IMG/VR virus record: IMGVR_UViG_3300010352_001202
Strand: one strand, 5' to 3'
Length of the DNA: 64,000 nucleotides
Source: a virus
Lineage: Duplodnaviria > Caudoviricetes
Shown: piece by piece, positions 3,859 to 31,460 of the stretch
How the letters are laid out: each line of letters starts with the position of its first letter
How positions within the stretch are numbered: the stretch's first letter is position 1
Program-made: the position numbers and the translations under genes
The notes under the pieces: generated by a model
What the model was told of the DNA's origin: nothing
What the model saw: the letters and a program-made list of their open reading frames with translations, nothing else
Databases searched by the model: none

Positions 3859-3859
3859 T

Positions 3860-11753: not shown

Positions 11754-11920
11754 CATTCTACAACGGGTTGCAGAGAGTGCAACATTATCAAACCGCTGTG
11801 GAGGCGTTGGCAGCCCACTATACTCGGAGAGCCATATTCGAGTGTTTAGTCCTTTAATGGATGAGGCCCTCGGCACCCTGTCGGTCTGGTGGAGGCAGGA
11901 TAGAAGCTAACTGTAGAATG
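11754..11920 (+). ncRNA. Unassigned multi-hairpin RNA
   Basis: Closing CATTCTACA/TGTAGAATG; internal GTTGCA/TGCAAC, ACTCG/CGAGT. Confidence 0.45.
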
Positions 11921-11931
11921 AACTATTCAAT

Positions 11932-12008
11932 GCCCCCGTACGCTAATTGGTAGTGCGGTCTGATTCAAAATCATATGGTTGTAGGTTCGAATCCAACCGG
12001 GGGTACCA
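11932..12008 (+). tRNA. tRNA-Leu(CAA), short V arm
   Basis: Loop TTCAAAA; same body as 10917. Confidence 0.85.
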
Positions 12009-12030
12009 AAAATATTACGATAAATATAGG

Positions 12031-12723: not shown

Positions 12724-12726
12724 CAT

Positions 12727-12952
12727 GGGATCTGTGTCCTGCTCGGCCCTAGGCGCATATGCTGAGAAAGGCTTGGAGTAAGCCGTATAGGCCGGCGGGT
12801 TCGAACCCCGTAGGTTCCACCAAAGTCAATGGGCCCATAGAAGTCACTATTCTATACACCTTTAGGTCCACCAAATATCGGGCCGCAAAATGCTTGCAAA
12901 CTAAAACTTTTCGGCAGAATTACACCAGGGTCGCGCCCTGGGCGGTCCACCA
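12727..12952 (+). ncRNA. Three tRNA-like RNAs with G3.U70 Ala acceptor stems (12727-12822, 12831-12873, 12880-12952)
   Basis: All start GGG and end TCC-ACCA; D and/or anticodon arms non-canonical or missing. Confidence 0.6.
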
Positions 12953-12995
12953 ATAATAGTCTGCGTATGATAAGCAAAGAACAGACCTACTTTAC

Positions 12996-13071
12996 GCCGA
13001 TGTAGCTCAGTGGGTAGAGCGGCAGCCTGAAAAGTTGCGCGTCACTGGTTCGATTCCAGTCTTCGGCACCA
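12996..13071 (+). tRNA. tRNA-Phe(GAA)
   Basis: Canonical cloverleaf, loop CTGAAAA. Confidence 0.93.
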
Positions 13072-13097
13072 ATCACTAAGACATAGTCTTATAAAAC

Positions 13098-13168
13098 GCA
13101 ATAGTAGCTTCAAGGGTAGAGCGCAACCGCAAAGGCGAGGTTATAGGTTCGAGTCCTGTCTATTGTAG
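13098..13168 (+). ncRNA. tRNA-like RNA with collapsed anticodon arm
   Basis: GCAATAG/CTATTGT, intact D and T arms, only CC-GCAAA-GG between them. Confidence 0.55.
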
Positions 13169-13177
13169 AAAATTTAT

Positions 13178-13254
13178 GCCCGGAGAGCGCAGCTGGCGAA
13201 GCCATCCTCCTTACAAGTGGAAATTGTAGAGTTCGATTCTCTATCCGGGTACCA
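13178..13254 (+). tRNA. tRNA-Val(TAC)
   Basis: Loop CTTACAA, ACCA. Confidence 0.8.
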
Positions 13255-13258
13255 TATT

Positions 13259-13351
13259 GGGTGATGATGCAGAGCGGCCTCTGTCCCTGTCTTGAAAACA
13301 GATGTATCGATGATGAGTCGGTAGGCGATCGACACGACCCCTCACCCGCCA
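13259..13351 (+). tRNA. tRNA-Ser(TGA), atypical T arm
   Basis: CTGT-CTTGAAA-ACAG, long V arm, GCCA. Confidence 0.65.
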
Positions 13352-13361
13352 TAAATATAAT

Positions 13362-13703
13362 ATGTTCAGCGTATTTTTCAAACTTTATAACCGTCCTGGC
13401 ACAAATGTTCCTGTAGGATTTCGTACAGGCCATACCGATATACCGTATAAAGTTTTGTTCAGGACGAAGGGCATAACGGTTGATAGAATCTTTATACCTG
13501 CTAGTGCTATAATAGAGTACAGCGGCATGTATCAAGGAGATATTAAGCCGGGATCAGAAGAATGTAGATTTCAAATGGGCAATCCGGACTACCAATATAA
13601 GTTGTATTTGGTAGCAGATAACATGTCAGAAGCCCAAGCAGCACATTTTTCAAAAACATTATCGGAGAAGCTTAGTTCTTCTCAATTATTCATGCGTGCT
13701 TAG
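13362..13703 (+). CDS. Hypothetical protein
   Basis: ORF after ATAAATA motif. Confidence 0.55.
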   Translation: MFSVFFKLYNRPGTNVPVGFRTGHTDIPYKVLFRTKGITVDRIFIPASAIIEYSGMYQGDIKPGSEECRFQMGNPDYQYKLYLVADNMSEAQAAHFSKTLSEKLSSSQLFMRA

Positions 13704-13767
13704 TTAAATGGTATAATTATTGGTTGCCATCCAGTAGTCAGGAGTTCGATTCTCCTAGCCCGCACCA
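13694..13767 (+). tRNA. tRNA-Gly(GCC)
   Basis: ATTGG-TTGCCAT-CCAGT. Confidence 0.85.
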
Positions 13768-13776
13768 AGTTTCTAA

Positions 13777-13832
13777 AGGTTACATTCAGCAAACAAAACT
13801 AACTTTCAATTGGTGAAAAAAACTGTAACCTG
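13777..13832 (+). ncRNA. CAGCAA-family RNA
   Basis: AGGTTAC/GTAACCT-G, ATTCAGCAA, TTTCA-ATTGG-TGAAA. Confidence 0.75.
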
Positions 13833-13838
13833 AATTAT

Positions 13839-13914
13839 CGCGTAGTGGCAGAGCGGCTAGAGCGCCTCCCTCATAAGGATGAATACACTGGTTCGAATCC
13901 AGTCTACGCGACCA
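13839..13914 (+). tRNA. tRNA-Met(CAT)
   Basis: Loop CTCATAA, ACCA. Confidence 0.85.
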
Positions 13915-14004
13915 CAGAATTATTGACTCTCAGTGTTTATACTTAGTAAAATTGTGCGGTCGCAGCAATTTTGCTAAATACTTATACAACACACTGGGAA
14001 AATC

Positions 14005-14178
14005 ATGTTAAAGCAAATTATTGAATTCATTAGAGACATTTTCAGATCACAAAGTATGTACGATAGCCTCGATGCATACATTACTGCTCATAATCCGCAG
14101 AACGCCGGCGATGTGGATCGCCTAGAAAAAGAATTCTATCAGCGCCGTTCGATTTCGGCATTTGAAAAATACTATTAA
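14005..14178 (+). CDS. Small protein (57 aa)
   Basis: MLKQIIEFIRDIF...DAYITAHNPQNAGDVDRLEKEF; RBS GGGA. Confidence 0.6.
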   Translation: MLKQIIEFIRDIFRSQSMYDSLDAYITAHNPQNAGDVDRLEKEFYQRRSISAFEKYY

Positions 14179-14179
14179 T

Positions 14180-14250
14180 CTCACCGCTAATGGATTAGCG
14201 CCGTCGCTACGAACGATGGCTAGGGGGTTCGAATCCCTCCGGTGGGTCCA
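14180..14250 (+). tRNA. tRNA-Arg(ACG), short D arm
   Basis: CGTCG-CTACGAA-CGATG. Confidence 0.75.
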
Positions 14251-14255
14251 TTTAT

Positions 14256-14332
14256 ATCTCCATCGTCTAGTGGCTATAGGACGCTTGCCCCTCAAGCAGG
14301 AAAGTCGGGTTCGAATCCCGATGGGGATGCCA
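14256..14332 (+). tRNA. tRNA-Glu(CTC), C33
   Basis: CTTGC-CCCTCAA-GCAGG. Confidence 0.85.
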
Positions 14333-14339
14333 AATCAGT

Positions 14340-14420
14340 TGGGAGTAAAGTCCGAAGTGGCCCGAGGCGTCTGCCTTTGAAGCAGAAATTTAGCTGGTTC
14401 GAGTCCAGCACTCCCTGCCA
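14340..14420 (+). tRNA. tRNA-Gln(TTG)
   Basis: TCTGC-CTTTGAA-GCAGA. Confidence 0.85.
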
Positions 14421-14428
14421 ATTACAAT

Positions 14429-14505
14429 GTGCCTATCGTCTATCGGTTTAGGACGACACCCTTTCACGGTGTAAAGCGGGGTTCGATTCCTTCTTGGGAT
14501 TACAG
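14429..14505 (+). tRNA. tRNA-Glu(TTC), mismatched acceptor (possible pseudogene)
   Basis: ACACC-CTTTCAC-GGTGT; poor acceptor pairing. Confidence 0.55.
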
Positions 14506-14510
14506 AATAT

Positions 14511-14602
14511 GGATGGCGGGCAGTGCGGCAAATGCAACACCCTGCTAAGGTGTAGGCTTGTGATGAACAGGCCGCTGGGTTCGACTCCCAGGCCATCCTC
14601 CA
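14511..14602 (+). tRNA. tRNA-Ser(GCT)
   Basis: Loop CTGCTAA, long V arm. Confidence 0.88.
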
Positions 14603-17409: not shown

Positions 17410-17423
17410 GATAAATATGTTTT

Positions 17424-18008
17424 ATGAACATATTAGATAATCATAGTCCGTATTATCTTACCTTTCAACATCAACAGTTTGACGAAATAGTTAGGCTTGC
17501 ATCTTCTACTGAAGTTAATAACTGGGACAGGGTTACACCCTTTACTCACGAGTTGTTACCTGCAGATATTGCCGACAAAATAATTTCAATGGTTCCAAAA
17601 TCAGAAGAACTGAAATTAATAAAGGGTCGCGCATCACTTTTTATTTCTAAGCCCGGGCTTTATTACAGAGCCCACAAGGATGGTTTGAGACTGAGATTTG
17701 GTATAAACTATCCTATTGTGATTAAAGATGCGTGCTGCGTAACCCGGTGGTATGACGATAGTGTGTCGCAACATTATGATACTAATTTATTGAAGAATGC
17801 ATCGAGGGAGTTGGAAGGATTTGACCCAGCAAAACATACTCCTGTTCATGAAATAAGTATGAAAGACAATGCAGTGGTATTGTTTAATACAGAAATATAT
17901 CACGACTGGTCGAACCAGAACTCAAATAATATTAGGGTAATTATGGCGCTAAGATCCTCTGACCCTAATATTACATATGATATGGCAAAAGAAATTCTAT
18001 TCGGCTAA
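17424..18008 (+). CDS. Putative 2OG-Fe(II) oxygenase-like protein
   Basis: HKD...H...N...R facial-triad pattern. Confidence 0.55.
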   Translation: MNILDNHSPYYLTFQHQQFDEIVRLASSTEVNNWDRVTPFTHELLPADIADKIISMVPKSEELKLIKGRASLFISKPGLYYRAHKDGLRLRFGINYPIVIKDACCVTRWYDDSVSQHYDTNLLKNASRELEGFDPAKHTPVHEISMKDNAVVLFNTEIYHDWSNQNSNNIRVIMALRSSDPNITYDMAKEILFG

Positions 18009-18024
18009 CATAAAAATTCCATGC

Positions 18025-18056
18025 AGCTCATTGCTTTCGGGCAATGGGCTTTTTTT
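18025..18056 (+). terminator. Intrinsic terminator
   Basis: AGCTCATTGC-TTTCGG-GCAATGGGCT then U-tract. Confidence 0.8.
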
Positions 18057-18082
18057 GTGACTTGAAAAAATCCGAGATAAAT

Positions 18083-18547
18083 ATGCATATTATGACAAAT
18101 AAGATTTCGTTTATAGATTTTGAAACTATATTGCCTATTTGGAGAAATAAACTTTGGCCAGACAGAACATCCGTCATCGAAAGTCATAGTGCAATGATGA
18201 TCACTCCCGGAATATACGATGCAGGTAATTTTAATTTACCTATATGGTATTATGGCTTTTACTTAGATGATATGTTGGTCGGTGTGAACAGCGTGCATGA
18301 ATGCACCGATGGGCTAATAAGGAGTCGTGGATTCTGGGTCGACGACAATTATCGTGGCAGGGGAATAGGTACACAATTGCTTGCAAGCATCGTAAATGAC
18401 ATAAAAATGCACAAATTTAAAGGCATATGGTCATATCCCCGTAAGCAGGCGTGGTCAGTGTATGAGCGTGTAGGTTTTAGATCTATTTCCGACTGGGAAG
18501 AAAGTGAGACAGGCACGAATATGTATTGTTACATGGATTTACAATGA
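18083..18547 (+). CDS. GNAT acetyltransferase
   Basis: VDDNYRGRGIGTQLL; YERVGF. Confidence 0.85.
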   Translation: MHIMTNKISFIDFETILPIWRNKLWPDRTSVIESHSAMMITPGIYDAGNFNLPIWYYGFYLDDMLVGVNSVHECTDGLIRSRGFWVDDNYRGRGIGTQLLASIVNDIKMHKFKGIWSYPRKQAWSVYERVGFRSISDWEESETGTNMYCYMDLQ

Positions 18548-20085
18548 CAGTTGATGTTTTAATTTTCACAGATTGTGCTTCGCGGGCATTTTTAAGAACA
18601 GCAGGTGCATATACGATCGCGACTGTGTTGAGAAAGAATGGCTACACCGTACAGGTTGTAGATTATTTCTTATTATCCGGTTTAGAAAGAGCTCTGGCAA
18701 CGATTGATAAATTTGTAGGCGAGAACACTCTATTTGTTGGATTTGCAACCACATTTATGAATTTAAGTGGGGTGCATTTATCCGAGTCTGCAAAAAATGA
18801 TAAAATGTTTTCATATCATGGATATGAGCGAACTGCATTCGTATTAGGTACAGCAGCATTATCGACTCGTGTACCTGTTTCTGATAATGAGATGGACCAG
18901 ATAAGAGACAGAATCAAACTAAGAAATCCTAAAACAAAGCTGGTAATGGGCGGCACGAAAGCAGACAACAGAAGTCAGCCACAAATAGATACATTTATAC
19001 TCGGGTATGCCGATAACTCAGTTATTGAGTATACGAAATTCCTTGAGGGGAAAAATCCTTTCTTTAGATACACATTAAATGAACATCATCAAATGATTGT
19101 TGACCACGACCTCGATGCATCTGGTTATGATTTTGTTCACTCAACTATCGAATATGACGAGAGCGATCTAATTAAACATAATGAGGTATTGTCATTAGAA
19201 ATTGCACGCGGTTGCATTTTCAAATGCAAGTTTTGCAATTTTAGATTAACGGGAAAAAAGAAAAACGATTACATTAAAGATAAAGAGGTAATTTATTCTG
19301 AATTAATGAATAATTATGAAAGATTTGGCACAACAAAATATTCCTTTGCTGATGATACATATAATGAATCAGTACAGAAGTTAGAACACTTTGCTGAGGT
19401 ATTTCAGAAGTTGCCCTTTAAACTAGAATTTGTTGCCTACCTAAGGCACGACCTTATTTGGCGTTATCCGGAGATGGCTGATATTCTTAGACAGAGCGGA
19501 CTAAAGGTGGCGATGTTTGGAATCGAAACACTAAATCACGAAGCCGGTAAGATTATTGGTAAAGGATTGCCACCAGAGAAAACAACCGAGTTGTTGCATT
19601 GGTTGCGCAAAGAAAAGGGTTGGGCCGGTAATATCTTAATGAATTCGGGATTTATTGTTGGACTACCTACCGAGACGGAAGATACAGTAAATAAATGGAC
19701 AGAAGAGCTTATGGATTTTAATTATCCGTTAGATTCTTTTCTAATAAATCCTCTAGGCATAACTCCGCGTTCTCCTAAATTATCAAAATCCGAATTTGAT
19801 ATAAATTACAAAGATTACGGATATTATTTTGATCCGAAGGTATCTGTGGGATGGATAAACGAACATTGGAGAATCGAGGATGTAAGAAGATTGTGTACAG
19901 TCATTGACAAATATGCTACAGAAATAGGTCGAATTAAATTATACGGATTTAGCACAATGACACTTCATAACTATGGCTATACATGGGATGATATACACAA
20001 TTCTGTATCAGCCAATTATACAAACTCCATTTTCTACGAAACTGTAAAGCAGGCAGATTCATACTATAAAGAATTATTAAAATGA
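18544..20085 (+). CDS. Radical SAM enzyme with B12-binding-like N-terminus
   Basis: RGCIFKCKFC, DDTYN, FGIETLN, GFIVGLP. Confidence 0.9.
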   Translation: MTVDVLIFTDCASRAFLRTAGAYTIATVLRKNGYTVQVVDYFLLSGLERALATIDKFVGENTLFVGFATTFMNLSGVHLSESAKNDKMFSYHGYERTAFVLGTAALSTRVPVSDNEMDQIRDRIKLRNPKTKLVMGGTKADNRSQPQIDTFILGYADNSVIEYTKFLEGKNPFFRYTLNEHHQMIVDHDLDASGYDFVHSTIEYDESDLIKHNEVLSLEIARGCIFKCKFCNFRLTGKKKNDYIKDKEVIYSELMNNYERFGTTKYSFADDTYNESVQKLEHFAEVFQKLPFKLEFVAYLRHDLIWRYPEMADILRQSGLKVAMFGIETLNHEAGKIIGKGLPPEKTTELLHWLRKEKGWAGNILMNSGFIVGLPTETEDTVNKWTEELMDFNYPLDSFLINPLGITPRSPKLSKSEFDINYKDYGYYFDPKVSVGWINEHWRIEDVRRLCTVIDKYATEIGRIKLYGFSTMTLHNYGYTWDDIHNSVSANYTNSIFYETVKQADSYYKELLK

Positions 20086-20603
20086 AAGAAGACTCAATTC
20101 TTACTCACCTTGGCAGGGTGCTAACGCAGCAAGAAGTAACTGATGCTATGACTTATATCAAGTCTAACCGATTACTTTTTGTCAATCGTCCTTACATGTG
20201 TGATGAACAGGTAGGTGGATATCCTCTTGCATATGTATGCCAAAAATCACAAGAACTTGATAGTATTATCAAGGCATTAGAACAGGCATTGTTATCAACA
20301 AGTCATTTAGACAATACACGAATTATCGAGCGTGGCATCGGTATTTCGCCTGAGGATTTATCTTTTGATAATGTTGTTGATAGTAAAGAGATAGCACTGC
20401 TATCTAAACAGGTAAGAATCCCGCTATCGGGGATTTCAAAAATTAATGATGAACTGTTGGGACTAGGGCTTGCTTATATTGTTGATACTGTAAGCGGGTA
20501 TAGTTTCTCAGCGAGTAAAGATTCAACTCATTTGGTATTTAACTTCCTCAGTAACGATGAAGTAAGAAAACCGTGGGAACTATGGAAGAATAGAGAATTA
20601 TGA
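20082..20603 (+). CDS. Hypothetical protein
   Basis: Translationally coupled ORF. Confidence 0.65.
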   Translation: MKEDSILTHLGRVLTQQEVTDAMTYIKSNRLLFVNRPYMCDEQVGGYPLAYVCQKSQELDSIIKALEQALLSTSHLDNTRIIERGIGISPEDLSFDNVVDSKEIALLSKQVRIPLSGISKINDELLGLGLAYIVDTVSGYSFSASKDSTHLVFNFLSNDEVRKPWELWKNREL

Positions 20604-22138
20604 CTGTAGATGTAATTATATTTTCTGATTGCTCTTCTGAAGCATCTATTAGATATGCAGGCGCATATACAATAGCATCTTCATTGCGCGAGGCCGGCTT
20701 CACTGTTCAGGTAGTTGATTATTTTCTGCTTACGGGATTAGAAAAAGCATATAAGATTATTGATAAATTTCTGGGTGAGAATACATTGTTTGTCGGGTTT
20801 TCTACAACATTTATGAATGTCTCGTGGGAGCATAAAAAGGCACACCAGACAGATCCGTCGATGTTTAGATTTGACAATTTTACACAGATGCAATTGGGTG
20901 CATCAACCCATAACGGTTATTCATACGGTGTGCCGATATCCGAAGATGAAATGCTTCAGATTCAGCAGTATATCAAGAATAAGAATTCTAAGACAAAACT
21001 TGTTCTCGGCGGAACAAAAGCAGATTTTACTTATCAGAAATATATTGATACATTTATCCTGGGATACGCAGATAAATCGGCAGTCGAATATGCAAAATTT
21101 CTACAAGGAAAAAATCCGTTCTTTAGGTATAGAATAAATGATAAATTGCAAATGGTCGTTGATTATGACATTGATGCCAAGTCTCACGATTTTGTCAATT
21201 CTCGTATTGAGTATGACTCTAGCGACCTTGCACGCCCAGACGAACCTTTGCCGATTGAAATTTCAAGAGGATGTATTTTTAAATGTAAATTCTGTAATTT
21301 TAGAATGATTGGCAAGAAGAAAAACGATTACATTAAAGACAAGGAAGTAATATATTCTGCGCTAATGAGTAACTATGAAAAGTTCGGTACAACAAAGTAT
21401 TCTATCACTGACGATACATGGAATGAATCTGTCGGTAAGCTCGAGATGTTTGCGGAAGTATGCCAACGATTGCCTTTTAAGATAGAATATGTTTCTTATC
21501 TAAGGCTTGACTTAATATGGCGTTATCCGGAGATGGCCGACCTCCTGAGAGAGACAGGGCTTAAAGCAACAGCATTTGGAATCGAAACACTAAATCACGA
21601 AGCTGGTAAAATTATCGGCAAGGGATTGCATCCAGAGAAAGTCAGGGAAACACTTCATACTCTTAGAGATAGCAAAGGTTGGAGAAATAATATTCTAATG
21701 TTCTCTGGATTCATCGTTGGCCTGCCTACAGAAACAAGAGACACTGTAAATAAGTGGGTAGAAGAATTAATGGACTTTAATTATCCGTTAGATGCATTTC
21801 AGTTAAATGCTTTATTTTTAGGAAACAATAAACATAAATCCGAATTTGATTTGAATTATAAGGATTATGGTTATTGGTATGATAAGAAAGTTTCTACTGG
21901 CTGGATCAATGAGCATTGGCGTGTGGAAGATGCGGGCGAGTTATCTTCAAATATGCACAATTATGGACTTAGCATTGGCCGACTAAAAGCAAATGGATTC
22001 TATTCTATGATTATGCAAAATTACGGATTTACATGGGAAGATGTACACAACACATCAATGGTCGGATATGGATCTTTATTTCAGAAGACTCTTACACATG
22101 CCAACACATACCATGAGAGATTGTTGAACGAAGTATGA
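20600..22138 (+). CDS. Radical SAM enzyme (paralog of 18544)
   Basis: RGCIFKCKFC; long identical blocks with 18544-20085. Confidence 0.9.
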   Translation: MTVDVIIFSDCSSEASIRYAGAYTIASSLREAGFTVQVVDYFLLTGLEKAYKIIDKFLGENTLFVGFSTTFMNVSWEHKKAHQTDPSMFRFDNFTQMQLGASTHNGYSYGVPISEDEMLQIQQYIKNKNSKTKLVLGGTKADFTYQKYIDTFILGYADKSAVEYAKFLQGKNPFFRYRINDKLQMVVDYDIDAKSHDFVNSRIEYDSSDLARPDEPLPIEISRGCIFKCKFCNFRMIGKKKNDYIKDKEVIYSALMSNYEKFGTTKYSITDDTWNESVGKLEMFAEVCQRLPFKIEYVSYLRLDLIWRYPEMADLLRETGLKATAFGIETLNHEAGKIIGKGLHPEKVRETLHTLRDSKGWRNNILMFSGFIVGLPTETRDTVNKWVEELMDFNYPLDAFQLNALFLGNNKHKSEFDLNYKDYGYWYDKKVSTGWINEHWRVEDAGELSSNMHNYGLSIGRLKANGFYSMIMQNYGFTWEDVHNTSMVGYGSLFQKTLTHANTYHERLLNEV

Positions 22139-22968
22139 ATTACACCTTTAGTCCGTTCTCGGTTGATTACGGAAATATCGCAGAACCTGTGCTAGATTTT
22201 AAATCGGAATGCGTGAGGGCTGTACAATTAGCTCAGTCTAAAAATAAGTATAATTTTCCGTTAGTTGTTATGATGAGCGGTGGTATAGATAGTGAATTGA
22301 TAGCACAATCATTGTTAATAGCCGGTGTTGAATTTAAGTGTGTTATTGGTAAACTAATGACACGGTTATCGGATAACGATATAGTATTCAATGAGCACGA
22401 TTATCAATATGCTGTTAGATGGTGTAATGCAAATAACATAGAAGTGATCTATTGCGAAATAGATATATTCAAAGAAAATAGACTGCTGTGCGATTATGCA
22501 CTATACTCAAAGGGGTTTTCGCCACAGTATGCTTGCCACATGTTTATTATGAAGTGGTGTTCGGATAATGGTTATTTTTTCTTAGCTGGTAACGGTGAGA
22601 TGGACTTAGTTCTAAAAGATAATGAATATTACATGCTTGACGAACAGAGAGAATTCACATTGGCTAATTTCTGCAAACTATACAACCTGAGCGGTGTGTG
22701 GCAGTTCTGGAAGCAGGATGGCAGAGTAATTTCGTCATTTTTGAAATTACCTACCGTGGCCGCTCTTATGGAGAAGAAAGTAGAATCTATCTTATCTTAT
22801 AAGCATGAATGCTTTAGTGATGCATTTGTATTTGAAGGTAGAAAAAAGGCCACAGGGTTTGAAAGAATACAAGAATGGGATTATATTCATAGGACCGAAC
22901 TGAAACAAGTAAACGGCCACTTAGACGAAAAGTATTATACACCCGTTTCGCAATTTATAAAGGTATGA
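22135..22968 (+). CDS. PP-loop (N-type ATP pyrophosphatase) protein
   Basis: MSGGIDSE. Confidence 0.7.
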   Translation: MNYTFSPFSVDYGNIAEPVLDFKSECVRAVQLAQSKNKYNFPLVVMMSGGIDSELIAQSLLIAGVEFKCVIGKLMTRLSDNDIVFNEHDYQYAVRWCNANNIEVIYCEIDIFKENRLLCDYALYSKGFSPQYACHMFIMKWCSDNGYFFLAGNGEMDLVLKDNEYYMLDEQREFTLANFCKLYNLSGVWQFWKQDGRVISSFLKLPTVAALMEKKVESILSYKHECFSDAFVFEGRKKATGFERIQEWDYIHRTELKQVNGHLDEKYYTPVSQFIKV

Positions 22969-22969
22969 T

Positions 22970-23551
22970 ATGTTAGCTAATCTTTTTGCATTCGGAAACA
23001 GAAAATATATAAACAATGCGGTAGTTACTGCGGATATCCTATCTTATATTACATCTACATACGGCGATGTAAAGAATTTCAGGTTGCATTTTAGAAAACC
23101 TTTTTTCACACAAGGAAATCTTGTTGTGGCTCCGTATAAGCTCGATGGGCATTTTGTAGGACAATTTGAAATTGATTATGTTCCTATGTACTTTGCATAT
23201 TCGCCCACCGACATTCCTTTAGAGACAAAAGAAGTATCTGTAGATGATGTGCAGGCAGATATAAATATTTTCAGCATGTGTTATTTTGTTGCTGAAAACT
23301 GCCACCAGGCTGTATTGCGTGCATTTGAAAAAAACTATGGTCCGCGAACGGCAGATGATAAATCTATATTCGTAATATACGAAATTCCGAACACATCAGT
23401 GTTCACAAAATTAATACAGGAAAAAAGAATACCAAACCTTACAATTTCTGAACCAGAAATAACTGCTGAACGAAAGTTTAAATTATCTGTATCAGTAGAT
23501 GGAGAATTGTTAGGTTATAGATATAATACAGTAAAGAAGTTTATCTTATGA
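22970..23551 (+). CDS. Hypothetical protein (paralog of 25903)
   Basis: MLAN.F..G.R.Y.NNAV...FRKPF shared. Confidence 0.7.
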   Translation: MLANLFAFGNRKYINNAVVTADILSYITSTYGDVKNFRLHFRKPFFTQGNLVVAPYKLDGHFVGQFEIDYVPMYFAYSPTDIPLETKEVSVDDVQADINIFSMCYFVAENCHQAVLRAFEKNYGPRTADDKSIFVIYEIPNTSVFTKLIQEKRIPNLTISEPEITAERKFKLSVSVDGELLGYRYNTVKKFIL

Positions 23552-24408
23552 AATATTGGGGCGAAAAAGCAGATACACACATTCGCCTGTGTGACACAAA
23601 TGTTTATCAGGGTTATCCCTGTGTCTCGGGAAAAGTTAACGAACACGGATATGTAGACGCACCGTTAGGTAAGAGTGATGTGCTTTATATGGGAACATGC
23701 GATATAATGTCTTCTGTTCCCGTTCCCGAACAGAGATGGGTGGCATTATTGCATAACAAGAAATATTCTAGTTTGCCGTTTATGACTATCGGTTCATCGG
23801 CTGCAGGATTGCCATCTATGGTTCGTAGGCTGCATTCATATGTGTCTAATTATGGTGCTCCTAAGAAACTATTCTTAACTGTTGCTAGATTTGAAGGTTA
23901 CGAATATGTAAACAAATCCGGCAAATGCTACAATGTGAATAGCAGAGTTGGCACCCCTCAATTTCTGAAGAGAAGAGAAATGCTTTCGGATGAGGAATTC
24001 AGCACTTGGCTTCTGCAGGTAAGCAATTACAAAAGGTTGTACAATATTCAGAATAATCAATACATTCTGGAAGAACGGTTTGCATTTATCGAAACCCTAT
24101 GTAAAGCCTATGGCATAGAAATGCAGTGGACCTTTAATTTATCTGATGCGTGTATTGTTGCTATGCATAGAAATATATCTATATTTGAAAATATTTCTTC
24201 CTTTATGAAAGATGCATTTGTTGGATTAGTAAACATAGAAGACGACATGCCCGACAGATCCATGGGATTAAAAACTCATAATAATATCTTCAATATGTTT
24301 ATGAATCCATGCAGCTGGAATTTCAAGCAGCTTGCAGAACAGGCCGAAAATAACTTTAAATGGCTAGAAGAAAAATACCCTGGCAACTTAATAAAGAATG
24401 AGGACTAA
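23548..24408 (+). CDS. SGNH-hydrolase-like protein (paralog of 26481)
   Basis: N..GY....LYMGTCD block; C-terminal D...G..TH. Confidence 0.5.
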   Translation: MKYWGEKADTHIRLCDTNVYQGYPCVSGKVNEHGYVDAPLGKSDVLYMGTCDIMSSVPVPEQRWVALLHNKKYSSLPFMTIGSSAAGLPSMVRRLHSYVSNYGAPKKLFLTVARFEGYEYVNKSGKCYNVNSRVGTPQFLKRREMLSDEEFSTWLLQVSNYKRLYNIQNNQYILEERFAFIETLCKAYGIEMQWTFNLSDACIVAMHRNISIFENISSFMKDAFVGLVNIEDDMPDRSMGLKTHNNIFNMFMNPCSWNFKQLAEQAENNFKWLEEKYPGNLIKNED

Positions 24409-24410
24409 TA

Positions 24411-25376
24411 ATGATCCACAGAAATTATTATACCTGTGGTTTCAACGCAAATTCGAGTCAATGTATTCGAACTGATATATCGGATAAGTGGAGTATAAAT
24501 TTTGATACTAAGGTTATAGAGAAAAGACCTCTAAAAACATTTCGAGAAGAGGTATTACATTCTTGCGAATTAATATATGAAGAGTTCGGCAAATACACAC
24601 CGAAACTAAATTTGTACTTTAGCGGCGGCATGGATTCCGAATGCATGCTTCGTAGTTTTGTAGAATTAGGTATACCTGTAAATCCTATAGTTATTACTCA
24701 TTATTACAGTCCGTTTGCTGACGAAACATTAAATGCTATGCGAGTATGCAACGAACTTTCGGTTAAACCGTTAATCTTTGATTTGAATCTTAGGGAATTA
24801 TACAGTAATAAGAAATTGTATGAGTTAGGTATAAAGTATCAATCGCCAAGACTAGGCATGTTAGAATTATTACATGTTATGGAACAAATTTCTGAACCTA
24901 GTGTATTAGCCGACGATATACAGATGCTTCACATTTCGTCAGATAAGAATTTACTGAATATAAATGAAACTGATTTTTTAGAGTGGATGTATGAAATACG
25001 GGAGGACGAGGACGGTGTTTTCTACAGGTATGAATGTATTACCGGAATACCGACAATTTCTGACTTCTTTAGGTATACACCGCAATCTTGGGCTTCGATG
25101 ATTCTCACCGAAGATATAAAGGACATTATCTTCAATTATAGAGGAAAGGCTTCTGCAACATCGACAAAAAATACAATGATGGCCCGAGAATTTAATGTAC
25201 TGTGGAGGCAAAAGACGGGTGTATTTTTCTCCCCTCAGCATTGGGAAATCAGAAACAGAATTAAGCATGATTTAGAAAATGAGTTATATCCATTTTCAAC
25301 AGCATTAATTACATACGAAAAGTTATTACAATTATTAGGATATCATTATGCTCTGCAGAATACTAACACAAAGTGA
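24411..25376 (+). CDS. PP-loop protein
   Basis: FSGGMDSE. Confidence 0.7.
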   Translation: MIHRNYYTCGFNANSSQCIRTDISDKWSINFDTKVIEKRPLKTFREEVLHSCELIYEEFGKYTPKLNLYFSGGMDSECMLRSFVELGIPVNPIVITHYYSPFADETLNAMRVCNELSVKPLIFDLNLRELYSNKKLYELGIKYQSPRLGMLELLHVMEQISEPSVLADDIQMLHISSDKNLLNINETDFLEWMYEIREDEDGVFYRYECITGIPTISDFFRYTPQSWASMILTEDIKDIIFNYRGKASATSTKNTMMAREFNVLWRQKTGVFFSPQHWEIRNRIKHDLENELYPFSTALITYEKLLQLLGYHYALQNTNTK

Positions 25377-25893
25377 TTACATGGTGTGCAGGGAATTGTA
25401 TGATAAATTCACTGATGCAGATCCACTGCGTCCACCGATTCCCACATTGAATCGGTATTACTTTGGCGACGACGAACCCCTATCTATGGTAATCGGTGCA
25501 TTCGATGAGTACGGAGTATTATCTGTTTGTGTTTTTGTTATATTTTCTAAACACGATCGTTCTATATCTATTCGTTATGTAATGAAGCATCCGTTTGCCG
25601 ATAAGAGCATGGTAGTTGGCGTCCTTGAATTTGTTGCCAATATGTCAAGAAATAGTAATTACTGTAAGATGTATATAAGTTACTTCAACAACCGCGCAGC
25701 AGCATGGGAGAGACTATTAAGAAATTCGGAAATTTTTAATAGATATACCGCCGTGGTCGAGGAAGTAATACCTGCTTCACGCAAGTCTTCTTTTACTAGG
25801 TACTGGACAGAAATGCAGGGTTGTAAAATTTCTCTAGAGCCAATGACAATTAAGATGTATTCATTAAAACAAGAGTTTAGACCTATTCTATAA
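25348..25893 (+). CDS. Possible GNAT-fold protein
   Basis: RILTQSD...VIGAFDE.G.L pattern. Confidence 0.4.
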   Translation: MLCRILTQSDYMVCRELYDKFTDADPLRPPIPTLNRYYFGDDEPLSMVIGAFDEYGVLSVCVFVIFSKHDRSISIRYVMKHPFADKSMVVGVLEFVANMSRNSNYCKMYISYFNNRAAAWERLLRNSEIFNRYTAVVEEVIPASRKSSFTRYWTEMQGCKISLEPMTIKMYSLKQEFRPIL

Positions 25894-25902
25894 AGGATTA
25901 TT

Positions 25903-26484
25903 ATGTTAGCAAATTTCTTCTCAATCGGAGATAGAAACTATCTCAACAATGCAGTTGTTATCTCCGATGCATTAACTATTATTAGCAAGACATTCGGGAA
26001 TGTAGCTGATTTTAAGATACAATTTAGAAAGCCATTTCTTTCGCAGGGCGAGTTTAAGCTTAGTACAGAAAAACTCGATGGCCATATTACAGGACAGTTT
26101 AAGAAGAACGATATGGTGTTTTTCTTTGCATATACACCTACAGATATTTCCTTAGAAGTTAAGGATGCAAACGGTGACGCAGTAAAGAATGATGTTACGC
26201 CGTTTAATGTATGCTATCATGTAACTGATGTATGCCGTGGCGCAATTGAAGAAGGATTTGAAAAGGTTTACGGGCCAATGACAACAAAGGATAAAGTTAT
26301 CTTTGTTATGTTTGAAATTCCATGTACAGCAGTGTTCAACAACATTATTATTGACGGTGCAATGCCTCCTATGACTATTACTCCTGCAGAGCAGACAGGA
26401 GATAGGAGATTCAAGGTGTCTGTTTATGTTGGCGGAAAATTATTGGGACATAGGCACAGCACAGTAAAGGAATTTATTGTATGA
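25903..26484 (+). CDS. Hypothetical protein (paralog of 22970)
   Basis: Visible alignment. Confidence 0.7.
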   Translation: MLANFFSIGDRNYLNNAVVISDALTIISKTFGNVADFKIQFRKPFLSQGEFKLSTEKLDGHITGQFKKNDMVFFFAYTPTDISLEVKDANGDAVKNDVTPFNVCYHVTDVCRGAIEEGFEKVYGPMTTKDKVIFVMFEIPCTAVFNNIIIDGAMPPMTITPAEQTGDRRFKVSVYVGGKLLGHRHSTVKEFIV

Positions 26485-27341
26485 AAAAATACTGGGGAGA
26501 AACGGAAGATAGCCACTTAAGATTATGGACCTCTGATGTCTATCTCCAATATGCGCCTGTAAAACATACCATAACAGAAGAAGGGTATCGTGGAGATAAG
26601 TTACAATCAACAGATGCATTGTTTTTAGGAACATGTGATGTAATGTCAAGCCTTCCCGATAGTAATCTTAGATGGTCTGCATTAGTTCATAAGGAGAAAT
26701 TCTCAGATCAACCATTTATACCGCTGGGTACTGTTGGTTCTGGATTGCACGCAATGGTACGGCGTTTGTATTCATTTATACAAAATCACGGCGCCCCGAA
26801 ATATGTATACATGACTGTTCCGAGATTTGATGGATATGAATATGTAAACAAATCAGGCAAGACATACAGCGTTAGTTCAAGAAAAGGAACAGCAAAGTTC
26901 CTAAAATATGCTAACCTAATAAACGAAGAAGATCTTAGTATATGGTTATCTCAGATTGAAGCAAACAAGAATTTAGAGAATATACATAACAACCAGTATG
27001 TACTTGAAGAAAGATTTTCATTTATAGAACTGTTGTGCAAGGCGCACAACATAGAACTAAAATGGAGCTTCAATCCCAGCGATGCTGGCATCGTATTGCT
27101 GCATAGAAATCTAGCTATATTTGAGCATCTTTCTCCGTTTATGAAAGATTCGTTTGCCGGCTTGGTCGAAATCAAGGATCAGGAAAAAGATAGATCAATT
27201 GGTATAGAAACCCACCGTGCTATCTATCAGCAATTTATTAATCCGGAATCGTGGAATTATGCTACACTTCGAACCAGGGCAGAATATAATCTCGAATGGT
27301 TAAAAACTCGTTACGGTGATAACCTTATCAATAGGGAATAA
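26481..27341 (+). CDS. SGNH-hydrolase-like protein (paralog of 23548)
   Basis: RF.GYEYVNKSGK and NNQY.LEERF shared. Confidence 0.5.
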   Translation: MKKYWGETEDSHLRLWTSDVYLQYAPVKHTITEEGYRGDKLQSTDALFLGTCDVMSSLPDSNLRWSALVHKEKFSDQPFIPLGTVGSGLHAMVRRLYSFIQNHGAPKYVYMTVPRFDGYEYVNKSGKTYSVSSRKGTAKFLKYANLINEEDLSIWLSQIEANKNLENIHNNQYVLEERFSFIELLCKAHNIELKWSFNPSDAGIVLLHRNLAIFEHLSPFMKDSFAGLVEIKDQEKDRSIGIETHRAIYQQFINPESWNYATLRTRAEYNLEWLKTRYGDNLINRE

Positions 27342-27376
27342 TAACGATAAATACCCATACATAGGAGATATTGAGT

Positions 27377-27784
27377 ATGGGATTTATAACATTATTGATG
27401 GGTAATAAAAACCTGATATTAGTCGGGTTGTTACTAGCGGCTTTTGCTGGAACAGGCATTTATGTAAAAGTCCTGAAACATAATATCGAAAGTTGCCAAC
27501 AAGAAAAGGCACTGATCTCGGCAAAACTAGAAGTTTCGCAAGAGGCTGTAAAAAACCTGCAGGCAGCCATTACTGAACAGAATACCGCGATTGATAAGTT
27601 TAAGTCCGCAGCGGACGAAAGAGTAAAAGCAAATCAAGTAGAGCTAAACAAAGCTCAGAATACAGCAAATGCATTCAAGCAGCAGGCAACTGATATAATG
27701 AAGTTTGTTCCACAGCCCGGTGTTCCTAAATGTGATTCTGCAAACTCCCTAATCAATATGGAGATCAAAAATGCTAAAAAGTAA
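27377..27784 (+). CDS. Putative i-spanin (Rz-like)
   Basis: N-terminal TM, coiled coil, overlaps a lipoprotein gene. Confidence 0.7.
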   Translation: MGFITLLMGNKNLILVGLLLAAFAGTGIYVKVLKHNIESCQQEKALISAKLEVSQEAVKNLQAAITEQNTAIDKFKSAADERVKANQVELNKAQNTANAFKQQATDIMKFVPQPGVPKCDSANSLINMEIKNAKK

Positions 27785-28049
27785 TCTATTGGCATTATCC
27801 TTGGCTGTGCTATTATCTGCATGCGCATCGGGACCTGCACCTGTAATGGCTCCACTTATTCAAAAAGTTGAAGTTCCTATTGCTGTTCCTTGTAAAGTAG
27901 CCGTTCCTAAGTTACCGTCTTTCAATTTTGATGAACTAAATATTGATCAGGATATTTACGAAAAGGTACGCGCATTGCTTGTAGATAGGAAGTTACATCT
28001 CGGATATGAGGTTGAACTTTTGGCAGCATTAAATTCCTGTATAAAATAA
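27771..28049 (+). CDS. Putative o-spanin lipoprotein
   Basis: Lipobox LSAC, Pro-rich, VPIAVPC. Confidence 0.7.
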   Translation: MLKSNLLALSLAVLLSACASGPAPVMAPLIQKVEVPIAVPCKVAVPKLPSFNFDELNIDQDIYEKVRALLVDRKLHLGYEVELLAALNSCIK

Positions 28050-28057
28050 AATCTATT

Positions 28058-28629
28058 ATGCTTGTAAAGATAATAACTGTTGTAGATAATGATAAGCTTT
28101 TAGCAGCATTAGAAGAAATTTCGATTATTAGCTGGGAAACTATTGTTGATGAAAGAGCCAGAGATATATTTACTACCAGTAGAAGTATTTCTCTTAGAAC
28201 ACATAAAATTACCGGTGCACCACCTAAAACAATCGATGAATCATCTAGGATTTTAGATTGCACCGATATTGTAGTTAATAAGCAGAAATATGTACAATGC
28301 TATAATTAGCCGAATGGGCATATAAACAGGTAGGCGGGATATCACTAGGACGGGTAATGATTGTAAATCTGCTACCCAACGGATATGTTTCTTCGCATAT
28401 CGATCCCGGCAGTTATTTTGCAAAATATTCAAGATTTCATATACCGTTAATAACAAATGAGCAAGTTGTATTTTCTCGATACGAAGATACAGAAAAAGAA
28501 CATATGCCGTATGGGCATCTTTGCCAACTTAATAACTTGGATATGCATATGGTAAGAAACAACAGTGATCAGCCAAGGATTCATATTATTGCTGACATTG
28601 AAGTACCGGGCGGTAACTCTATATTCTGA
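28058..28629 (+). pseudogene. Asp/Asn beta-hydroxylase-like 2OG oxygenase split by a -1 frameshift near 28306
   Basis: -1 frame reads LAEWAYKQVGGISLGRVMIVNL..HID...RFHIPL...H.V.N....RIHII. Confidence 0.7.
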
Positions 28630-29288: not shown

Positions 29289-29897
29289 ATGTTCAAACCC
29301 ACATACCTATACATAAAAACTCATAATGTTACCGGATTGAAATATTTTGGTAAAACTGTAGGTGATCCCTTTAGATATAAAGGATCGGGTGTAAGATGGC
29401 TGAATCATCTATCTGTACACGGCAATAAGGTGACCACTGAAATAATCGGGCATTATGAAGTATTAGAAGAATGTAATAAGGCAGCATTAGAGTTTAGTGA
29501 AAAATACAATATAGTAAAGAGTGACGAATGGGCCAACCTTATTGTCGAAGACGGTCTGATGGGAGGATTCACTGAAGATCACGGTAAGAAGATAAAAGAA
29601 ATATGGAAAAATCTTACCGAAGAAGAAAAAGACATAAGAAGGCAAAAAGCCAACCCCTGGAATAATAAAACAGAAGAAGAGATAAGTCGATATAAAAAGA
29701 ATCTTCAAGATTCTATGATTGATATGTATCAATCGATTGCCGGTAAAGAATTATTAGAACATAAGAAAAAAGTAGGAAAATCTTTATTAAAGAATGGAAA
29801 AAGAATGCTATCCGATGAAGCACGACAAAGAATGAAAGAATCGGCGTATAGGACAAACGAATTAAGACGAATAAAGAAGGAGAAAGATAATGCGTAG
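29289..29897 (+). CDS. GIY-YIG-like homing endonuclease
   Basis: YLYIKTHNVTGLKYFGKT..Y.GSG. Confidence 0.85.
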   Translation: MFKPTYLYIKTHNVTGLKYFGKTVGDPFRYKGSGVRWLNHLSVHGNKVTTEIIGHYEVLEECNKAALEFSEKYNIVKSDEWANLIVEDGLMGGFTEDHGKKIKEIWKNLTEEEKDIRRQKANPWNNKTEEEISRYKKNLQDSMIDMYQSIAGKELLEHKKKVGKSLLKNGKRMLSDEARQRMKESAYRTNELRRIKKEKDNA

Positions 29898-30568: not shown

Positions 30569-30997
30569 TTGCCAAAAAGTAAAGGAATAAGAGAATCATA
30601 TCGATTTGCTCGGGAGGCCGCTCGTATCGCGGGAAATAAATTCTATATCGGTCAAATCTGTAAGAAACATCCGGAATTGTTAGGCCAACGGCAGGTTAAT
30701 AATTGTATCTGTATTGAGTGTAGAAAAGAATATTCAAGACTGCAAAGTACTGGATTTTCGGTAGAATTATTTAATTTGGTATTAAAGCAACAAGAAAATA
30801 GTTGTGCTATATGCAGAGATAAATTTGATAATACTGATGCACACGCAGACCATAATCATGTAACTAAGCAACCACGCGGAATACTGTGCCGAAAATGTAA
30901 TTTAATGATAGGGTTTGCACGAGATAATCCGGAAATTTTACAAAATGCTATAGAATATCTTGCTAAACCAGACCTAATTTTTGGTTGTGATAAATAA
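30569..30997 (+). CDS. Endonuclease VII-type homing endonuclease
   Basis: CAIC...DHNH....RGILCRKCN..IG. Confidence 0.85.
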   Translation: MPKSKGIRESYRFAREAARIAGNKFYIGQICKKHPELLGQRQVNNCICIECRKEYSRLQSTGFSVELFNLVLKQQENSCAICRDKFDNTDAHADHNHVTKQPRGILCRKCNLMIGFARDNPEILQNAIEYLAKPDLIFGCDK

Positions 30998-31029
30998 AAA
31001 TATATATTATAGTTTTAGTTATTGTTGTA

Positions 31030-31327
31030 ATACGGACTGATTCAAAGGATTCAAGACGCGGGTTCGATTCCCGCCGGCTCCACCATTAAGCACATTTGCC
31101 GAATGTTCTTAATAATGGGGCCGACCAGGTTTCGATTGGGTCGCGGAGAGGATGATACGCAACACGCCAGGCGATCGGCGTTAATGAAGCAAAACTCTGT
31201 AAATGCAAACGCAAATACATTCGAGACAGTAGCCCTTGACCTTTCAGCTCTTGCTGACAGCGATATGGCTCTTGCTGCTTAATACCCAGCATACTCCGGG
31301 GCTGGTTAGCCTTGTAACCCAATAACC
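31030..31327 (+). ncRNA. ssrA: Permuted two-piece tmRNA
   Basis: GACGCGGGTTCGATTCCCGCCGGCTCCACCA (ends 31085) precedes GGGGCCGACCAGGTTTCGA (31117); tag ANANTFETVALDLSALADSDMALAA* at 31205-31282. Confidence 0.92.
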
Positions 31328-31328
31328 T

Positions 31329-31350
31329 TATAGGGACTTCGGTCCCTATA
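31329..31350 (+). terminator. Hairpin terminator after tmRNA
   Basis: TATAGGGAC-TTCG-GTCCCTATA. Confidence 0.7.
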
Positions 31351-31460
31351 ATTATGACTTTTATTTCAAGGTTGACATTTCAAGAATAATGTCATATACT
31401 AGATAAACTTTATAAATAAAAGTTCCGCTCAAGATGGGCGGATTACAAGAGGAAAATAAT

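Follow-up and report, generated by a model that had tools for sequence, protein, structure and literature searches.

A co-inherited enzyme operon of giant T4-like phages with folds suggestive of acyl chemistry

The 64,000-nucleotide stretch of the Caudoviricetes record IMGVR_UViG_3300010352_001202 (IMG/VR), referred to here as the window, carries a run of eleven + strand genes at positions 18044–27341 (about 9.3 kb), which is a genuine, co-inherited and uncharacterised enzyme pathway. Database entries for the proteins of the window trace it to a contig of 388,165 bp. The initial annotation had drawn the cluster too wide, at 17424–28629. The conserved unit appears to be a late-transcribed accessory operon in a clade of uncultured giant T4-like phages and is composed of four sub-modules: (i) an acyltransferase and a PP-loop protein (GNAT1 and PP1), (ii) a second such couple in reverse order (PP2 and GNAT2), (iii) a double-hotdog protein with an SGNH-fold protein of Cys type, and (iv) one or more class-B-type radical S-adenosylmethionine (SAM) enzymes, here with a 173-residue partner. 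We tentatively read the operon as a pathway of acyl-thioester/N-acyl tailoring whose target is an envelope lipid or a lipid-linked molecule, with a probability of roughly 0.4.

The genes of the operon, in order, are the following.

18044–18547, + strand: GNAT1, acyl-CoA N-acyltransferase, first conserved gene of the operon (Pfam Acetyltransf_7/1/10, E 1e-9)
18526–20085, + strand: radical SAM copy 1, class-B type, with a putative B12-binding-like N-terminal domain (Pfam Radical_SAM, 2.4e-15; probable start ATG 18544)
20082–20603, + strand: 173-residue protein between the radical SAM genes, no detectable family
20600–22138, + strand: radical SAM copy 2, class-B type (Pfam Radical_SAM, 2e-17)
22135–22968, + strand: PP1, PP-loop ATP pyrophosphatase-like protein (sequence motifs SGGIDSE and C-terminal R-x-K-x-T-G-F-E)
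22970–23551, + strand: hotdog a, compact double-hotdog protein of 193 residues, with a fold like TesB and polyketide synthase dehydratases (AlphaFold2 model)
23548–24408, + strand: SGNH a, SGNH-fold protein of 286 residues with Cys at the nucleophile position (AlphaFold2 model)
24411–25376, + strand: PP2 (SGGMDSE), an old paralog of PP1 (hhalign)
25348–25893, + strand: GNAT2, assigned to the GNAT class at the level of fold, always directly 3′ of PP2
25903–26484, + strand: hotdog b, double-hotdog protein of a second lineage, 48.7% identical to hotdog a
26481–27341, + strand: SGNH b, Cys-type SGNH-fold protein of a second lineage, 52.5% identical to SGNH a and with all family-invariant residues

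The translational coupling described in the initial annotation runs through the whole operon: judged from the coordinates, neighboring genes overlap or are separated by at most 9 nt at all ten junctions, and ATGA overlaps are found at five of them. The operon begins 15 nt past a tRNA-Gln gene and is flanked by a tRNA array and by spanin genes followed by transfer-messenger RNA (tmRNA). Every large open reading frame (ORF) of the window lies on the + strand, and the window contains 47 tRNA genes in addition to the tmRNA, as well as homing-endonuclease genes, an RNA ligase and a Ro60-like DUF2828 protein. A megablast search with the whole cluster gave no match among 50,697 deposited phage genomes. 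Searches of Pfam, NCBIfam, PHROG and the PDB matched the operon genes to no characterised pathway, single-sequence and profile searches against PDB sequences (PP1, PP2, radical SAM, the SGNH family, GNAT2 and the family of a 194-residue protein encoded upstream) returned nothing specific, and a literature search on this combination of enzymes found nothing relevant.

Related loci were collected from viral and metagenome contigs, 28 of them by scans with an alignment of the SGNH family and one more (L034) by a scan with PP1; about 20 are non-redundant. The recurrent order is GNAT1, zero to two radical SAM genes, PP1, in some loci PP2 with GNAT2, hotdog, SGNH and sometimes a third PP-loop paralog, and then, further downstream, the spanins, in some cases an AspH-like gene, and tmRNA. 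The hotdog gene stands directly 5′ of the SGNH gene in 17 of the 20 non-redundant loci that have upstream sequence; the exceptions include L034 and L056, where a divergent SGNH gene is followed by a distant hotdog homolog. PP2 and GNAT2 are adjacent in eight loci. Gene-neighborhood conservation had been proposed as a check on the initial idea of an uncharacterised, co-inherited pathway, and that idea is borne out by the common gene order in about 20 non-redundant phage contigs, by gene fusions and by the absence of a match to any characterised pathway.

The other leading idea, that each enzyme class occurs as a pair, is true for the window, but most relatives carry one copy per class and the pairs differ in history. 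PP1 and PP2 separated long ago, GNAT1 and GNAT2 show no detectable similarity to one another, the two hotdog-SGNH couples belong to distinct lineages, and the radical SAM genes underwent a lineage-specific duplication. An origin of the whole cluster in a single duplication was therefore rejected on the basis of the trees and the relatives, and the appearance of everything in pairs is a coincidence of several events.

Fusions tie the enzyme classes together: SGNH proteins of 434–438 residues carry a C-terminal GNAT domain, a GNAT1-like protein is fused to a PP-loop protein in P0149, and an AspH-like protein to a PP-loop protein in P0098. In four cases a PP-loop protein is fused to subtilase domains. 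In L038/L060, L057, L061 and L063, a membrane desaturase gene lies directly upstream of the hotdog gene; the encoded proteins match Pfam FA_desaturase (E 1e-12 to 1e-17) and have four hydrophobic segments and the HRxxxH/HRxHH/HNxHH boxes typical of Δ9 acyl desaturases. Two contigs binned as a Nitrososphaerales archaeon (L092 and L093) show the order desaturase, PP3, PP2 and GNAT2 with 45–58% identity to the phage genes; they probably come from phages and were mis-binned into an archaeal metagenome-assembled genome (MAG). As a separate observation, suppressor-type tRNA genes adjoin the operon in two relatives, with anticodon CTA in L036 (15864–15939; tRNA-Pyl according to ARAGORN) and TTA in L046 (11054–11128; "tRNA-Stop").

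The PP-loop family is also present in bacterial assemblies, mainly of Bdellovibrionota and Alphaproteobacteria, as revealed by a search with a 14-sequence alignment; among them are a 1.9-Mb Bdellovibrionales chromosome and a Bradyrhizobium isolate. Among 143 neighboring ORFs in 22 Bdellovibrionota and Alphaproteobacteria loci, the most frequent Pfam families are GNAT (seven), GT2 (six), FA_desaturase (five), radical SAM (four) and AspH (three), and GT1 occurs twice. Among cellular sequences, the phage toolkit is matched most fully on a MAG contig of Bdellovibrio sp. (L079, JANPPC010000018.1): the island at positions 1700–14600 encodes two PP-loop paralogs and three AspH-like, two desaturase-like, one GNAT1-like and one AsnB-like protein.

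The initial annotation had described two paralogs of no recognised kind (22970 and 25903), each coupled to an SGNH-like paralog (23548 and 26481), and this description agrees with the identities given above and with the modeled SGNH fold. The AlphaFold2 model of the hotdog protein has a predicted local distance difference test (pLDDT) value of 88.9 and shows two helix-in-sheet halves. Structural comparison with VIA gave TesB (PDB 4r9z) as the best match, with a Z score of 11.1, and the top 50 matches were all double-hotdog thioesterases or polyketide synthase dehydratases. The family is rare (eight database clusters), has no invariant His and lacks the dehydratase-type His; D130 and E138 are invariant, and these two residues could serve as acid and base.

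The SGNH model, built from a 26-sequence alignment, has a pLDDT value of 93.8. When Foldseek was run on it, a check suggested at the outset, the significant matches were all SGNH/GDSL proteins with probabilities of about 1.0, the top ones being carbohydrate esterases of families CE2 and CE3 and the peptidoglycan O-acetyltransferase PatB. VIA-align placed CgnD first (PDB 8a2n, Z 12.8), with TesA at Z 10.9 (root-mean-square deviation 2.8) and many esterases near Z 10; over residues 42–255 or so, the Z scores range from 9 to 12.8. The family-invariant residues are G49, C51, D52 and the oxyanion-hole residues G82 and N197, and block I reads G-(T/S)-C-D instead of GDS. With residues mapped by strand position and not by superposition, the catalytic Ser is absent, and the presumed block V residue His244 is Gln in 8 of the 26 members. 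The 286-residue family comprises about 70 database clusters, all unnamed and with no Pfam family, and its nearest ESM Atlas clusters are viral; an AlgX/SGNH cluster is among its Atlas structure neighbors. Neither of these two core families, hotdog and SGNH, is in a Pfam or PHROG family, and the models given here supply fold assignments for both. A predicted complex of the two proteins scored 0.00 against a mark of 0.32, which speaks neither for nor against binding.

In the trees, hotdog a groups with its L040/L041 orthologs (support 100/100) and hotdog b with its L042 ortholog (86% identity, support 99/98). The affinity of pair a to L040/L041 and of hotdog b to L042 shows that the two couples are distinct lineages and not a recent tandem duplication. 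A further SGNH paralog, annotated at 39589–40527, was rejected, as hhalign gave a probability of 0.16% and no profile similarity to the SGNH-like family was found.

TesB and TesA both act on fatty-acyl thioesters. Since the two phage proteins are fold relatives of these thioesterases, the hotdog/SGNH pair may take acyl groups from host acyl-coenzyme A (acyl-CoA) or acyl-acyl carrier protein thioesters, and the SGNH protein would probably form a thioester acyl-enzyme on Cys51. The hotdog and SGNH folds, the adjacent Δ9-type desaturases and the GNATs together favor acyl-thioester or lipid-type chemistry. We agree with the initial annotation that the substrate is not readable from the sequence alone; its list of tRNA, DNA, virion proteins or a small molecule omitted this chemistry. 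The further steps that we infer would be distributed over the other enzymes. The GNATs would place acyl groups on amines, and the PP-loop enzymes would adenylate a carbonyl (of a carboxylate or an N-acyl amide) to form or convert amide-type bonds; the pairing of PP-loop and GNAT proteins suggests the making and then the converting of N-acyl or amide bonds. The radical SAM enzymes may methylate or otherwise functionalise unactivated carbons, while the AspH-like hydroxylases and, in relatives, the Δ9-type membrane desaturases would further edit the acyl chain. The AspH family (PF05118) includes the lipid hydroxylases LpxO and OlsC. In the infected cell, the acceptor would most likely be a lipid of the envelope or a lipid-linked molecule, and its modification would take place late in infection.

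Several observations weigh against this proposal. The operon of the window has, according to Pfam, no desaturase, acyl carrier protein, PlsC/LpxA-type acyltransferase or membrane protein, and all eleven of its proteins look soluble. The hotdog family is devoid of the dehydratase-type His, and the block V His is replaced by Gln in part of the SGNH family. All radical SAM family assignments fall far under the curated cut-offs, and to our knowledge no PP-loop enzyme has a role in lipid metabolism. Proteins with hotdog and SGNH folds also act on substrates other than lipids, such as sugar acetyl esters and, as in CgnD, peptides. A glycan target would be equally consistent with the bacterial GT2 neighbors and with the sugar genes that follow the L034 cluster, and the fusions of PP-loop proteins to subtilase domains hint at peptides.

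If the target were a glycan, the operon would serve N- or O-acylation or de-acylation, amidination and C-methylation of amino sugars on a surface polysaccharide, lipopolysaccharide or virion glycan: the GNAT would make an N-acetyl group, the PP-loop enzyme would convert it, and the SGNH protein would be a carbohydrate O-acetyl esterase or transferase. WbpG and PseA are PP-loop N-acetyl-sugar amidotransferases. The CE2/CE3 and PatB matches of the SGNH model and the AlgX/SGNH cluster among its Atlas neighbors agree with such a role, as do the GT2 and GT1 proteins near the bacterial genes and the NAD-epimerase, PAPS-reductase-like and PIG-L-like genes into which the L034 cluster continues downstream. 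In marine myophages, radical SAM cassettes stand beside glycosyltransferases in the host recognition cluster (PMC7029224). However, no glycosyltransferase or sugar-nucleotide gene was found in or next to the operon in the window or in L035–L047, and Pfam scans of 29 of the 37 listed + strand ORFs of at least 150 residues in the window detected no tail-fibre or glycosyltransferase family. The operon does not adjoin tail-fibre genes, the PP-loop proteins show no similarity to WbuX/PseA-type amidotransferases in NCBIfam, and sugar chemistry offers no obvious role for the double hotdog or the Δ9-type desaturases. On balance, we regard a glycan target as doubtful, though with enough in its favor to be kept in view.

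CgnD, the best structural match of the SGNH protein, is an SGNH-fold hydrolase that removes the leader peptide in the biosynthesis of crocagin, a peptide made by the ribosome and modified after translation (RiPP) (PMC10070186). The match, which covers 211 residues, raises the prospect of a RiPP- or lipopeptide-like modification of a phage or host peptide or protein, which would be C-methylated by the B12 radical SAM enzymes, hydroxylated by AspH, N-acylated by the GNATs, amidated or cyclised by the AsnB-like PP-loop proteins and trimmed by a CgnD-like SGNH protease. The four subtilase fusions point in the same direction, and so do the matches of the radical SAM enzymes to RiPP C-methyltransferase models (TIGR03975, 6.7e-8; ApyD, 1.2e-7; both below cut-off). 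AspH and GNAT proteins are, moreover, common classes of RiPP tailoring enzymes. Yet, the interval 18044–27341 has no ORF of precursor-peptide size and no free intergenic space, its gaps being at most 9 nt, and neither a RiPP recognition element nor a YcaO or LanB-type enzyme occurs. CgnD exceeds the generic SGNH matches by no more than about 2 Z units, and only a lipopeptide product would explain the adjacency of desaturases. A peptide or protein target is thus considered unlikely.

The two PP-loop proteins have the SGGxDSE motif, as initially noted, and are homologous (hhalign 97%, E 7e-11 over 227 columns), although BLAST aligned them with only 27% identity over 55 residues. PP1 orthologs in related loci are 48–63% identical. 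The family has at least 844 representatives at E ≤ 1e-3 and is without a Pfam family of its own; S48, G49, G50 and D52 are invariant in 47 members, and the C-terminal R-x-K-x-T-G-F-E motif is conserved. Only the N-terminal HUP region resembles Asn synthase, QueC, NAD synthase and MnmA. PP1 has a weak match to the MnmA HUP model of Pfam (20.2 bits, cut-off 20.6), and the PDB profile matches of PP2 to QueC (3bl5, E 9e-4) and NAD synthetase (E 2e-3) cover the PP-loop region only. None of the cut-offs for QueC, MnmA, TilS, AsnB, NadE and LarE was reached, with 22.8 against 284 bits for MnmA and 12.2 against 150 bits for QueC in NCBIfam. Among deposited phages, PP1 had one weak match, in Ralstonia phage RsoM2USA, to a hypothetical protein whose neighborhood is unannotated. 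A function as sulfurtransferases was rejected for the PP-loop proteins, as they have no paired conserved Cys and one near-invariant Cys only. PP-loop enzymes adenylate carbonyl oxygens of carboxylates, amides and ureido groups, as exemplified by NadE, AsnB, QueC and argininosuccinate synthetase.

The weak HUP-domain matches to MnmA and QueC, together with the location of the operon, bear on a modification of phage or host tRNAs, in which the PP-loop proteins would act like TilS, MnmA or QueC, a GNAT like TmcA and the radical SAM enzymes like MiaB. Besides the 47 tRNA genes and the tmRNA, the region holds the RNA ligase and the Ro60-like protein; the placement after tRNA-Gln and tRNA-Arg (and in some cases tRNA-Trp) and before the spanins and tmRNA is repeated in L035, L040, L041 and L044–L047, and tRNA genes occur within 5 kb even in the divergent loci L060 and L061. 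This placement, however, is synteny within one phage clade, in a region shared with spanins and homing endonucleases, and L034, L051 and L056 have no tRNA in the DNA examined. The bacterial PP-loop genes adjoin GNAT, GT2, desaturase and AspH genes, not tRNA genes. The single near-invariant Cys makes thiolation unlikely, no RNA-binding domain (THUMP, PUA, TRAM and similar) or curated tRNA-enzyme family was above cut-off in Pfam or NCBIfam, and hotdog, SGNH and membrane desaturase proteins are without precedent in RNA modification. We therefore hold tRNA or another RNA to be a poor candidate for the target.

The QueC-like gene seen near 12031 is present elsewhere in the window (Pfam QueC, E 1.9e-7); the first 60 nt of its ORF (11947–12031 region) overlap tRNA-Leu (11932–12008), so the start is probably set too far upstream. 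In general, PP-loop and radical SAM enzymes take part in 7-deazaguanine pathways, and this, with the QueC-like gene and the late-looking expression of the operon, would accord with hypermodification of the phage genome. But hhalign gave 11% between the QueC-like protein and PP2, so the PP-loop proteins are not QueC; the operon and its immediate surroundings contain no DpdA/TGT, QueD, QueE, FolE, nucleotide kinase, glycosylase-fold transferase or hydroxymethylase gene, and acyl-type folds do not fit. DNA as the substrate is accordingly very improbable.

Returning to the proposed acyl tailoring, the two annotated GNAT-like proteins are not equally secure. GNAT1 passes the cut-offs of three Pfam GNAT models and has the CoA-type motif RGRGIG, and its orthologs in ten loci are 46–53% identical; the closest GNATs in the PDB are generic polyamine or N-terminal acetyltransferases. 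Its true start is probably near 18083–18092, because an ATAAATA box stands at 18077 and the N-termini of the orthologs agree with the later position. GNAT2 is a GNAT by fold only, with TM values of 0.65–0.72 to GNAT clusters in the Atlas structure search and a PDB profile match to 4lua (E 0.019). A close paralogy to GNAT1 was rejected, as no profile similarity was detected. Aminoacyl-tRNA-dependent GNATs were likewise rejected, since GNAT1 has the CoA-type RGxGxG motif.

The two close radical SAM paralogs and the third one annotated at 34277 are well founded. Copies 1 and 2 share 63.5% identity over 515 residues, and the third paralog, which belongs to a distant lineage outside the operon, is 31–32% identical to both. 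All three pass the Pfam Radical_SAM cut-off and have the CxxxCxxC motif (GCIFKCKFC in both operon copies, GCQFKCRFC in the third). The B12-binding model of Pfam gave 24.9 and 24.4 bits for the operon copies (cut-off 32.1). The best NCBIfam matches are B12 radical SAM families (PhpK, HpnJ and a lipid family), far below the cut-offs, as with PhpK at 60 against 600 bits; lipid enzymes account for three of the better matches (HpnJ, TIGR04072 and HpnR), all of them far below cut-off as well. In the tree, copies 1 and 2 form a clade with L036_5551 (support 100) and the third paralog branches apart, which points to a lineage-specific duplication of the operon pair. A tblastn search with the product of 18526–20085 against the deposited phage genomes found nothing, and the family recurs in 33 IMG/VR loci and is widespread in T4-like marine viral contigs, where 140 scanned neighboring ORFs included four 2OG-FeII_Oxy_5 and three AspH proteins. 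The radical SAM slot itself is variable: a SPASM-domain enzyme is found in L037 (6458–7819) and a small radical SAM protein of 339 residues in L034 (7421–8440). The 173-residue protein has no match in Pfam, PHROG or NCBIfam, and an ortholog with 36% identity is found at the same position in L036/L050 only.

The features outside the eleven genes are listed below.

17411–17417, + strand: T4-late-promoter-like box ATAAATA, with further boxes at 18077–18083, 23261–23267 and 27347–27353
17424–18008, + strand: 194-residue protein with a 2-oxoglutarate (2OG) oxygenase-like motif HxD...H...R (invariants H84, D86, H160, R171 and R177)
27371–27784 and 27771–28049, + strand: overlapping i-spanin and o-spanin pair (N-terminal transmembrane segment; lipobox LSAC)
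28058–28629, + strand: AspH-like cupin gene of the Asp/Asn β-hydroxylase family, frameshifted near 28307 (halves 28058–28309 and 28357–28629)
34277–35659, + strand: third class-B-type radical SAM paralog, distant lineage (Pfam Radical_SAM, 2.4e-11)

The ATAAATA motifs reported at 17410 and 18076 are present at 17411 and 18077. In the window, this heptamer occurs 45 times (25.5 expected), with 43 of the 45 copies on the + strand and many of them just 5′ of start codons. The enrichment, the strand bias and the position before starts fit T4-type late promoters, and the boxes at the operon suggest that it is expressed late.

The two 2OG-Fe(II) oxygenase-like genes annotated on either side of the cluster were not upheld as a flanking pair. 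The 5′ protein has the HxD...H...R motif only, with no Pfam or PDB match and no homolog near the cluster in any related locus. The 3′ gene is a single frameshifted AspH-like gene: its downstream ORF (28357–28629) matches Pfam Asp_Arg_Hydrox (1.3e-8, 35.3 bits, cut-off 22.6), and, compared with the intact single ORF of L040, the gene lacks 1 nt; the L036 ortholog is likewise a single ORF of 203 residues. An ATG of its own and the HxD...H part are retained in the 3′ half. The frameshift may be programmed, may come from an assembly error or may mark a pseudogene. The AspH-like gene is a recurrent but movable neighbor of the operon. Spanin orthologs follow the operon in ten loci and are a conserved neighbor rather than a member of the pathway; the order spanin pair and then tmRNA (30993–31373 in the window) 3′ of the operon is the same in the window, L035, L036, L046 and L062. 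Downstream of the AspH-like gene, a GIY-YIG-type homing-endonuclease-like gene (29289–29897) has a relative of 39% identity on the opposite strand in L037.

A bolder extension of the acyl-tailoring proposal is an invader toolkit common to giant phages and predatory Bdellovibrionota, which would re-acylate or remodel the envelope of the invaded Gram-negative cell and which, in phages, would be timed with the adjoining spanins to prepare the membranes for final fusion and lysis. Its components would be an SGNH acyltransferase with a Cys nucleophile and a small double-hotdog partner, the couples of GNAT and PP-loop proteins, and the radical SAM, AspH and desaturase enzymes as editors. We consider this extension improbable as it stands. 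If it were true, it would represent a new class of enzymatic host-envelope remodeling, with two protein families described in no catalogue. If an acylated envelope molecule is indeed made late in infection, auxiliary metabolism of phages would reach beyond single lipid desaturases to the multi-step tailoring of lipids or glycolipids, possibly linked to lysis. In giant phages, tens of kilobases are given over to uncharacterised enzyme islands, and the operon is a compact version of about 9.3 kb that is expressible as one unit. The fold assignments for two core families, the fusions that show which enzymes work together and the chemical hint given by the desaturases provide entry points, and genetic work is possible on the homologs found in cultivable predators of the Bdellovibrio type and in a Bradyrhizobium isolate. 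For enzymology, the SGNH variant with Cys for Ser and the 193-residue double hotdog are of interest in themselves.

Phage tailoring islands and phage lipid desaturases are kinds of system already known, and no characterised pathway matches the operon as a whole. At the level of single proteins, the closest parallels to the hotdog/SGNH pair are E. coli TesB (double hotdog, relatives of PDB 4r9z/1c8u) and TesA (SGNH, PDB 4jgg/1ivn), with which it shares the folds at the Z scores given above but no detectable sequence similarity. The phage hotdog protein has 193 residues, compared with about 286 in TesB, and the phage SGNH protein, in which Cys replaces the nucleophilic Ser, is extended by about 45 residues at the N-terminus and varies between His and Gln in block V. 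Moreover, the hotdog and SGNH genes are translationally coupled in the phage, whereas the TesB and TesA genes are not in E. coli. CgnD aligns with the 286-residue family over model residues 1–255 but with 8% identity; it uses Ser79, and the phage operon has no CgnB, CgnC, CgnE or precursor gene. The PP-loop ATP pyrophosphatases (the AsnB synthetase domain, NAD synthetase, QueC, MnmA and TilS) have the SGGxDS PP-loop and the HUP domain in common with PP1 and PP2. The operon proteins, however, lack a glutaminase domain, an RNA-binding domain and paired catalytic cysteines, and they form a group of their own.

At the level of gene clusters, marine T4-like pelagimyophages and cyanomyophages have a hypervariable host recognition cluster that lies between VrlC and gp14 and contains tail fibres, glycosyltransferases and radical SAM cassettes, and the same phages carry an aspartyl/asparaginyl β-hydroxylase gene (PMC7029224). 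It resembles the present operon as an accessory block of T4-like phages that includes radical SAM genes, in phages with an AspH gene. In contrast, the operon is located in the tRNA/tmRNA region beside the spanins, not between VrlC and gp14, has no glycosyltransferases, and is built on a core of PP-loop, GNAT, hotdog and SGNH proteins. Finally, the lipid desaturases of cyanophages (vFAD) are phage-borne membrane acyl desaturases that act on host lipids and are described as stand-alone auxiliary metabolic genes (bioRxiv 10.1101/109157). The relatives of the operon also carry genes for Δ9-type desaturases, directly 5′ of the hotdog gene, but in their case the desaturase is one optional component of an operon with several enzymes, and it is missing from the window.

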